NCBI GenBank assembly: GCA_038727515.1
Contig: JAVYVS010000001.1
Span: 352,001 to 416,000, forward strand
DNA from: Candidatus Methanomethylicia archaeon
Lineage (GTDB): Archaea; Thermoproteota; Methanomethylicia; Culexarchaeales; Culexarchaeaceae
Length of the DNA stretch: 64,000 bases
Direction of reading: 5' to 3'
A program made the position numbers and the translations under genes. Shown one piece after another: positions 20,990 through 23,409 of this stretch (the stretch's first letter is position 1; each line of letters begins with the position of its first letter). A model generated the notes under the pieces. It ran no database searches. It saw nothing but the letters and a program-made list of their open reading frames with translations, and had not been told where the DNA came from.

Positions 20990-21877
20990 TCACCCACCTC
21001 CACGAGACTTTTTAGCAAAATAACTTAGATTGCCAAGTATAATACCTACAACAAGTAGATAATGTACTGCTGATTGAGCATTCATCGCTTGTGGTGCACC
21101 AGTTAACCCAAATTCACCAAGTAAAGTTTCATATTCAGCCGCACCCCTAAGACTATTAAGAATACCAATATAACCAATTTCACCCTTCTTACCAGCCTCA
21201 TAGTATGGTAAATACCCGGGAACTGAAACCCCAGGAAGACATGCGGCGAATACTAATGCAGGTGGAAGTTTCTTGGTAGCCCAATATTGTAGGTATGTTT
21301 CAGGTCCAGGGGAACCAGCAGCAAAAGATACAACTAGAGAAGCATACTTTATGCCATCAAACTTTTGTACTAGCTCCAAATTTTCTATGGGATTACCATA
21401 ATAATCCTTAGTCATAGCTTGGGTAATGGTGTCGAAAATTCTTATTATTAGAGCTGTAGTTGCTAGATAACCTAAGTTCACCCAATGCTTTCCATACTCT
21501 TTAGTAATAATGCGAGTTGGATTTTCAGGATCTAAACCAGTATGATCAATACTCTTCCATATTTCATCAGCCATTATCGGACCATCACTCCACATACCCA
21601 AAACAATAATATACAAGGGTCTCTTAACCACATGTCTAAATACAGCAATAGCTTGTGGATGTATCTCTGCGTGAGCACCACCATAATCAAATGATAAAAC
21701 AACTAACGATCCTGCTGGAAGCTTTTCAATATAATTATATAGGCCAAGGGTGTATTCAGTTATACTTAATGGTGATGGAGCAACAATAGCCACGGGTATT
21801 GCTATGCATATCGCGGTTAATAGGTATAGCCATCTAGGATCTAAAGCTTCAAGAAATTCATACCAAGGTCTACTCAA
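20990..21877 (-). CDS. Membrane-anchored alpha/beta protein, subunit C of DUF6754-type operon
   Basis: TTG 21877 after GGAGGTGAG (the longer ORF overlaps subunit B). N-terminal TM, SFDYG..AE.HP, WVNLGY, PYY..G, LRGAAEYE, AQSAVH, C-terminal TM. Confidence 0.85.
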   Translation of the reverse strand: MSRPWYEFLEALDPRWLYLLTAICIAIPVAIVAPSPLSITEYTLGLYNYIEKLPAGSLVVLSFDYGGAHAEIHPQAIAVFRHVVKRPLYIIVLGMWSDGPIMADEIWKSIDHTGLDPENPTRIITKEYGKHWVNLGYLATTALIIRIFDTITQAMTKDYYGNPIENLELVQKFDGIKYASLVVSFAAGSPGPETYLQYWATKKLPPALVFAACLPGVSVPGYLPYYEAGKKGEIGYIGILNSLRGAAEYETLLGEFGLTGAPQAMNAQSAVHYLLVVGIILGNLSYFAKKSRGGG

Positions 21878-21878
21878 T

Positions 21879-22595
21879 CTACTCACCTCCAGCAAGTGTT
21901 GGTCTACGCTCATAAGCAAATATGACTCTAACACCATAAGCAATACTGCCAATAGCCGTACATAAAACAACGCCACGCATAGCAGAAGTATTTATGTAAT
22001 CCATTATCCAAGCTCTAATAGGTTCAAAGAATGGGAATAATGCTGAATTTATTGGTGCATTACCCATTAAGACTAAAAATCCAGTTATTAATAATATTGC
22101 TGCATCAATATTCCTAGCTCTAAAAGCTCTATAACCAGCTGAAATTATGAAAAATCCAAGTAATGCAAACATCATACTACTAGCAACACTACTCACACAC
22201 CAATATAGATAGTTCCAGACGACTGCCGTAGAATCATAAATCCATTTAGGTACCACAGCACCCTTTGGATCTAATGCATATCTACCACCAAGAGTGCTTA
22301 TAATTGCCATGAATGGTATCATAATTAAGACTATAAGGCTAAATTGCCATGGACCACGTCTACGAGAAACATTCCTATAATGAATCCTAAATACATTTAT
22401 TGCACCAATACCAATAGCCATCGCACCCATAGCATTAAAGTAATCTAACATTGTAGTTTCAAGATAGCTGGATGTACTGAAAGTTCCAACTCTAATATCA
22501 ATGTACCACTCAAATACGTAAATTATCCCAAATACAAATGCTAATATTATTGGTATAGACCTTTTATAATCAAGTAATAGTGATTTAAATCCCAT
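21879..22595 (-). CDS. Multi-pass membrane protein, subunit B of DUF6754-type operon
   Basis: About 6 TM; FALLGFFIISAGYRAFRARN, GNAP, AMRG; GAGGTGAG RBS. Confidence 0.87.
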   Translation of the reverse strand: MGFKSLLLDYKRSIPIILAFVFGIIYVFEWYIDIRVGTFSTSSYLETTMLDYFNAMGAMAIGIGAINVFRIHYRNVSRRRGPWQFSLIVLIMIPFMAIISTLGGRYALDPKGAVVPKWIYDSTAVVWNYLYWCVSSVASSMMFALLGFFIISAGYRAFRARNIDAAILLITGFLVLMGNAPINSALFPFFEPIRAWIMDYINTSAMRGVVLCTAIGSIAYGVRVIFAYERRPTLAGGE

Positions 22596-22605
22596 CTAGC
22601 TCACC

Positions 22606-23409
22606 TCACTTAGCCAATAAATCTAATATAAACCTACTTCCACTACATATAGCGATAATACCTATCAACAACATAACCAATGCTATATACCTCCCAATAT
22701 CATGAGCAAATAATACACCAATTATTTTTGGATCTCTAGTTATATATGCTGCAGCTGCATAAAGCTCTTCACCGATTAAAGCATAATCACATGCAGCAAC
22801 GAAGAATGGCATTTGAACAGTGGCTGTGGTTCCAGCAATCTGTATTGCACCAATATTATAGCCAGCTTCAGCAAGCTCTAAAGATTCAGCATAGAAATAG
22901 CCTAAGAAGAAGTTTGCTGCAGGCCTCTCCCTCTGGAATATTCCAAGAACACCTGAAGCAAATGCAAATTGCTCACTGGCAATAAACCTAACCATTTCAG
23001 GTTGATACATATCTGCTTTACCTTCAGCTGCATAAGCTTGTTTTACAATACCTTCAGCAGCCATATAAACAGTGTAATACCTATTGGCTACAATTATGGG
23101 GATACCATATCTAGCAGTCTTTCTGGCAACATCTCCAAGTATTGATAGAGCAGCTAAAGTGTTTAAATCACCTATACCATGCATACCTGGAGTAAAGAAT
23201 ACTGGTCTACCCATCTCTGTAGCTCTACCAATAGCTTCATCCACAGCTTCAACAGCAGGAATCTTTCTAACCCTAACTTTTTCCGGTCTACGTTTAGAAA
23301 ATTCTAGTGCAAAAATCGTTAAAGCCCCAAGAATCATCAACATTACGCCTTGTGCCATACGCCCAGATATAACCCTAAACTCTATTTGGGCTAAATCCAG
23401 CAGTATCAT
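22606..23409 (-). CDS. DUF6754-like membrane-anchored protein (subunit A, copy 2)
   Basis: VRKIPAVEAVDEAIGRATEMGRP, PAANFFLG..YAESL.LAEAG, GAIQIAGT, PFF...CDY.LIGEELYAAAAY. Confidence 0.82.
   Translation of the reverse strand: MILLDLAQIEFRVISGRMAQGVMLMILGALTIFALEFSKRRPEKVRVRKIPAVEAVDEAIGRATEMGRPVFFTPGMHGIGDLNTLAALSILGDVARKTARYGIPIIVANRYYTVYMAAEGIVKQAYAAEGKADMYQPEMVRFIASEQFAFASGVLGIFQRERPAANFFLGYFYAESLELAEAGYNIGAIQIAGTTATVQMPFFVAACDYALIGEELYAAAAYITRDPKIIGVLFAHDIGRYIALVMLLIGIIAICSGSRFILDLLAK

Follow-up and report, generated by a model that had tools for sequence, protein, structure and literature searches.

A four-gene membrane unit in an archaeal genome

The stretch of DNA considered here is a 64,000-nt window of contig JAVYVS010000001.1 of Candidatus Methanomethylicia archaeon, and all position numbers refer to this window. 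It contains four close-set genes on the minus strand, in the order A-B-C-D, the first three of which make up the span 20990-23409 described in an initial annotation. With modest confidence, we take their products to be the four subunits of a conserved, uncharacterized unit in which A and C display the same architecture in opposite senses and which would serve as a multi-copy uptake system. The four genes are as follows.

22606-23409, minus strand: gene A, 267 amino acids (aa), member of Pfam DUF6754 (PF20539); ribosome-binding site GAGAGGAG before the ATG start
21879-22595, minus strand: gene B, 238 aa, six transmembrane (TM) helices, predicted N-in/C-in, with the invariant motif SAGYRAFRAR in loop 4-5
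20990-21877, minus strand: gene C, 295 aa, TTG start at 21877, one base past the B stop and behind GGAGGTG
20209-20985, minus strand: gene D, 258 aa, ATG start at 20985, four bases past the C stop

A GTG at 21976, which would open a 328-aa reading frame, was considered as the start of C and rejected in favor of the TTG at 21877 with its GGAGGTG. There is an AT-rich leader ahead of A and a T-run after D. Subunit A matches PF20539 with an E value of 1.9e-91 and 306.2 bits (the cutoff is 27), covering 241 of 257 model positions; B, C, and D matched no Pfam or NCBIfam family.

Subunits A and C share one architecture

The initial annotation described both A and C as a TM helix, an α/β domain, and a second TM helix with collinear sequence motifs. 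AlphaFold2 models from deep alignments for A [predicted local distance difference test score (pLDDT) of 88.2] and C (pLDDT of 94.8) agree with this description: each consists of a TM helix, a helix α0, six β-α units, and a TM helix. The model of C has, relative to that of A, an additional hairpin between α2 and β3. The segments of the two subunits are listed below.

23290-23355, minus strand: A TM1, residues 19-40 by hydropathy and AlphaFold2 helix 18-40, predicted to run from outside to inside
23263-23295, minus strand: A basic cluster KRRPEKVRVRK, residues 39-49, after TM1, read from the sequence
22732-23262, minus strand: A soluble domain, residues 50-226, α0 and six β-α units, Rossmann-like, predicted cytoplasmic, strongly conserved, with a Gly-rich loop after β1
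22645-22731, minus strand: A TM2, AlphaFold2 helix 227-255, followed by a short C terminus predicted to be outside
21782-21838, minus strand: C TM1, residues 14-32, predicted to run from inside to outside, with the family motif D-[RP]-R-x-I-Y just before it (DPRW in the window copy)
21113-21760, minus strand: C soluble domain, residues 40-255, α0, six β-α units, and a hairpin insert, Rossmann-like, predicted extracytoplasmic, variable
21011-21097, minus strand: C TM2, helix 261-289, with invariant N283, then the basic tail AKKSR (residues 288-292, 21002-21016)

The motif pairs named in the initial annotation map onto these models in the following way, the A motif being given first.

β1: PVFFTPG and VVLSFDYG
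β2: PIIVA and YIIVLG
β3: VRFI and VNLGYL
β4: ANFFLG and LVVSFAAG
α5: QMPFF and GYLPYY
α6: GEELYAAAAY and NSLRGAAEY
TM2: HDIGRYIALV and QSAVHYLLVV

All seven pairs fall on equivalent elements of the two models, and the collinear layout of A and C is therefore real. As letter similarity, the pairs do not rise above chance (BLASTP E value of 0.9); the genuine likeness lies in the order of the secondary-structure elements. On the models, then, A and C share an architecture of TM helix, helix, six-stranded Rossmann-like domain, and TM helix.

Predicted membrane orientation of the subunits

To apply the positive-inside rule, numbers of Lys and Arg residues (K+R) were averaged over family alignments from ~80 homologous operons. 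The A family has 4.8 K+R in the 15 residues after TM1 and 0.8 after TM2. The C family has 3.2 before TM1, 1.5 after TM1, and 3.3 in the six residues after TM2.

Fused domains point in the same direction as the charges. Among the 120 best A homologs, 54 are at least 330 aa long. A hydrophobic signal-like N-terminal segment was present in 13 of 14 long homologs inspected (the remaining one seems to be N-terminally truncated), and most of the 14 have a conserved (T)PND..G motif in a ~120-residue domain ahead of TM1; one such domain of a bacterial A homolog exceeds the Pfam fn3 cutoff. With a signal peptide and an FN3-like domain thus preceding TM1 in many bacterial A homologs, the Rossmann-like domain that follows TM1 is predicted to be cytoplasmic. 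One C homolog opens with a double zinc ribbon and a long acidic linker, and its first TM helix is the TM1 of C; since the zinc ribbon precedes TM1, the N terminus of C would lie inside and its domain outside. At the level of prediction, these data support the placement of the two domains made in the initial annotation, and A and C probably insert in opposite orientations, with the domain of A in and that of C out.

Average K+R numbers per loop are 2.0, 1.0, 4.7, 0.8, 3.1, 1.9, and 1.3 in the B family and 0.2, 2.0, 1.1, 2.0, 1.2, and 2.8 in the D family, which predicts six TM helices for both, with B N-in and D N-out. In the window copy, the K/R-rich loops of B follow TM2 and TM4 and those of D follow TM1, TM3, and TM5, so the alternation noted earlier (basic loops after even-numbered helices in B and odd-numbered ones in D) is present. 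Archaeal D has, in addition to six TM helices, a seventh that is lacking in bacterial homologs and is predicted to bring a KKKK tail back inside. The invariant columns of B, S152-A153-x-x-R156-x-F158, are located in predicted cytoplasmic loop 4-5. Four B homologs (P0271-P0274) have a ~380-aa insert of no known family in the TM3-TM4 loop, which is predicted to be outside.

The 150 best C representatives include one C-C tandem, one zinc-ribbon-C fusion, and one C with an extra TM and a tail; no A-B, B-C, or C-D fusions were found among them or in searches for longer B homologs. A 630-aa C homolog (P0236) consists of two C domains in tandem.

The C family motif D-R-R-x-I-Y before TM1 (21836-21850, C residues 10-14) resembles a twin-arginine signal. 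Of 138 family members, 83 have DRR; RR is absent from all eight copies of the archaeal genome, and TatC was not found in this genome (93.6% complete). Among ten bacterial genomes, TatC was found in four of five RR-bearing and two of five non-RR genomes. Export of C by the twin-arginine pathway with anchoring by the C-terminal tail was rejected here, given the DPRW of the window copy, the lack of RR in the eight paralogs, and the TatC result. A periplasmic solute-binding protein was likewise rejected as a model for C, whose AlphaFold2 model is a single six-stranded α/β domain and not two hinged lobes.

Distribution and conservation of the unit

The 1.59–megabase (Mb) archaeal assembly contains eight complete A-B-C-D operons. 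A second DUF6754 gene in the window (340-1098, minus strand) is the first gene of another ABCD copy, which runs past the window start. We compared 91 regions, namely, the 80 best bacterial genome loci, three metagenome or NCBI loci, and the eight copies of the archaeal genome. The A-B-C-D order is kept in 81 of them, across many phyla, and is also seen in a Firmicute and in Brocadia; this constancy bears only indirectly on whether the subunits form one complex. When the 8,000 best candidates were scored, more than 7,400 clusters (90% identity) of A homologs were obtained at E ≤ 0.001, many of them bacterial and ~50% identical; for C, 1,679 representative homologs were collected. Of 251 genomes sampled from one bacterial phylum, 20 carry the unit, which also occurs in many candidate phyla. 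Multiple copies are frequent: the archaeal genome has eight, and some Bacillota give at least ten matches.

Of the four subunits, A is the best conserved. Identity among the eight paralogs is 44% for A vs 35 to 37% for B, C, and D. Compared with bacterial homologs, the window copy is 48% identical in A and 33% in C, with overall figures of 33 to 37% for B, C, and D. In the A alignment (72 sequences), 25 columns are invariant, among them the glycine-rich loop after β1; in the C alignment (138 sequences), one column is. Since the conservation of A and C is clearly unequal, a symmetric design with one gating domain per membrane face is unlikely even if the two share ancestry.

Tests of common ancestry

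The initial annotation went further than a shared layout, proposing that A and C are distant paralogs and that, with B and D, they form an inverted-repeat transporter design. BLASTP returned no significant match for A vs C or for B vs D (E values of 0.9 and 2.6). In hhalign, the comparison proposed there as a check, A vs C gave a probability of 0.4% with locus alignments and 1.3% with larger alignments, with scores of 17 to 22 and E values of 0.04 to 0.15; reversed-profile controls scored 12 to 27, so the A vs C scores fall inside the null range. In a rank-enrichment analysis of hidden Markov model (HMM) searches, A was not enriched among the subthreshold hits of C, nor C among those of A. These comparisons lend the proposed paralogy no support. 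The best hhalign alignment, although not significant, spans 87 columns (A 57-150 with C 47-145) in structurally equivalent register, which is a hint rather than evidence.

Structural searches pointed to a generic fold. Foldseek against the PDB returned only weak generic matches for the models of A and C alike, and the A and C profiles matched no PDB sequence. The top-50 Foldseek lists of the two models have ten chains in common, among them 1kjn_B, ~90% of which is covered by each domain. Judged by the models, the two domains belong to the same fold class, a generic Rossmann-like fold and the commonest α/β fold. A shared origin for A and C cannot be demonstrated, and their likeness is that of this commonest fold.

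For B vs D, the whole-protein hhalign score of 27 equals the top reversed-profile null. When halves were compared, TM1-3 of B matched TM4-6 of D with a probability of 35%, an E value of 4e-4, and a score of 26, with half-protein nulls of at most 20. On the predicted topologies, both modules begin inside. The match, if real, suggests a parallel, non-collinear relation and not an inverted repeat. Collinear homology of B and D in opposite orientation, as an inverted-repeat design would have it, is not supported by these comparisons.

These results bear on the alternative closest to the initial annotation, in which A and C, with B and D, derive from the duplication and inversion of a single ancient A-B-like pair; the resulting antiparallel assembly would be pseudo-symmetric and have homologous domains on its two faces. 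The identical order of secondary-structure elements and the rare TM anchor at both ends of A and C fit this origin, as do the structurally correct register of the best alignment, the alternating soluble/polytopic order within one operon kept across phyla, and the opposite predicted orientations of A vs C and B vs D. However, no comparison by BLASTP, hhalign, or HMM search beats its null, the fold is the most widespread of its class, the lone B/D signal is non-collinear and parallel, and A differs strongly from C both in its pattern of conservation and in which residues are conserved. We therefore regard an ancient inverted pair as conceivable but doubtful. Homology of A and C would imply an unusual topology inversion that moved a large soluble domain across the membrane.

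A conserved ATPase pair and the gene neighborhood

Outside the window, a GlmL-like actin-fold ATPase (619 aa, PF13941) and, next to it, a 384-aa protein of no family are each encoded once in the genome (genome contig C1:552755-555782, minus strand; locus L118:956-3983). Both are 50 to 58% identical to bacterial genes located beside ABCD in some loci. In seven bacterial loci with the ATPase, it is upstream of A in four, downstream of the operon in two, and on each side in one (L049); in at least two of the four upstream cases, the partner ends at most 20 bases from the start of A. The 384-aa partner was present in all five ABCD-bearing bacterial genomes examined, from five phyla, and was unlinked to ABCD in at least two. 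In the 251-genome sample, DUF6754 and the partner occur together in 19 genomes and each occurs by itself in one; 230 genomes lack both. Among relatives, the ATPase pair was found only in the DUF6754-bearing order.

Three bacterial loci (L051, L072, and L098) share a longer order: two small proteins of no family (~155 to 175 aa, possibly membrane, and ~130 to 145 aa), the GlmL-like ATPase, the partner, A-B-C-D, and a SusC-like TonB-dependent receptor. Seven bacterial loci have such a receptor downstream of the unit. Apart from ABCD itself, no gene is common to more than 8 of ~80 loci.

In the window, the copy at 20209-23409 has radical SAM, ThiS, and cupin genes as neighbors. A 154-aa gene (23534-23998, minus strand) is on the same strand, 124 bases upstream of A, and has no Pfam match at E ≤ 0.01. 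At 1233-10264, next to the neighboring copy that begins with the DUF6754 gene at 340-1098, are two amidohydrolases, an M20 peptidase, a gamma-glutamyltranspeptidase, a creatininase, and a major facilitator superfamily (MFS) carrier. On a Firmicute contig (L032:9418-12381), ABCD is followed by a LevR-like sigma-54 activator with phosphotransferase system EIIA domains, and HPr is encoded nearby in a related contig (L031).

Proposed role and alternatives

An uptake system is the most likely function of the unit, judging by its copy number and neighbors. In such a system, C would be the external substrate-recognition domain, which fits its variability among copies. A, which is conserved both among paralogs and between archaea and bacteria and has the glycine-rich loop after β1, fits a constrained cytoplasmic ligand-binding or coupling domain that would meet a conserved partner. 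B (N-in) and D (N-out) would be the six-helix membrane subunits, and the eight substrate-specific uptake copies may share one cytoplasmic module made of the GlmL-like ATPase and the 384-aa partner. A role as importer would account for the uptake of compounds destined for the hydrolase islands around several copies. The resulting subunit map, with A inward, C outward, and B and D opposed, is a predicted one and links the unit to the conserved ATPase pair.

Several points weigh against this interpretation. The predicted topology derives from the positive-inside rule and a small number of fusions, of which the one with a zinc ribbon is known from one protein. The 87-column alignment in correct register leaves room for a very old A/C duplication. 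Transport, a ligand, and contact with the ATPase are all inferred. The co-occurrence counts include related genomes and hence non-independent events, and the radical SAM, ThiS, and cupin genes beside the window copy give no clue to a substrate. A predicted four-chain complex of A, B, D, and C counts neither way on binding: its score stayed high after chain A was swapped for an unrelated protein.

A broader version of the uptake proposal, which we consider unlikely, would make A and C true, very old paralogs. A TM-Rossmann-TM protein would have been duplicated within the operon and one copy inverted, leaving a folded domain of ~200 residues on each membrane face. ABCD, the actin-fold ATPase, and the partner would then amount to a novel type of system for solute uptake, spread over many bacterial phyla and some thermophilic archaea.

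Alternatively, the unit may be no transporter at all but may anchor to the membrane, or regulate, the co-occurring GlmL-like ATPase and 384-aa partner; it could, for instance, be a membrane-bound enzyme or a sensor, and C would be its external sensor domain. The very tight co-occurrence with the ATPase pair is consistent with this role, the cytoplasmic domain of A is conserved like an enzyme or docking surface, and B and D match no known permease family. However, eight to ten or more copies of the unit vs one strong ATPase copy per genome is the pattern of substrate-specific modules, and the unit adjoins hydrolases, an MFS carrier, and SusC-like receptors, which makes an anchor or regulator improbable.

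That both soluble domains are cytoplasmic, with a misleading charge bias in C and no two-faced design, is highly improbable: Rossmann-like domains are typically cytoplasmic, C of the window copy has just 2 K+R before TM1, and TatC was not found in the archaeal genome, but the K+R distribution of the C family (3.2 before vs 1.5 after TM1, with 3.3 after TM2) and the zinc-ribbon fusion place its N terminus inside, and the bias of A is reversed, with the signal peptide and FN3-like domain at the N terminus of its bacterial homologs.

Comparison with known systems

The unit matches no characterized system. DUF6754, the Pfam family to which A belongs, is without an assigned function or solved structure, Pfam has no family that includes B, C, or D, and a literature search for DUF6754 or PF20539 found no paper. 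The structural match common to the A and C domains is MTH777 (MT0777; PDB 1kjn), a six-stranded Rossmann-like protein. Potassium transporters regulated by KTN/RCK domains (KtrAB and TrkAH) were also compared, and no match to the KTN/RCK (TrkA_N) family HMM was found. Membrane-tethered solute-binding proteins of ATP-binding cassette (ABC) and tripartite ATP-independent periplasmic (TRAP) importers form a two-lobed clamp, whereas C is one-lobed, and the unit includes no ABC ATPase or TRAP membrane subunit.

EmrE-type small multidrug resistance (SMR) pairs and Fluc are inverted or dual-topology pairs whose partners are clearly homologous, polytopic, and without large soluble domains. The ABCD unit is unlike them in that homology of A with C and of B with D is undetectable and that a ~200-residue domain would have to switch sides of the membrane. 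Like them, it has adjacent partner genes whose products are predicted to insert oppositely, as marked by opposite K/R bias.

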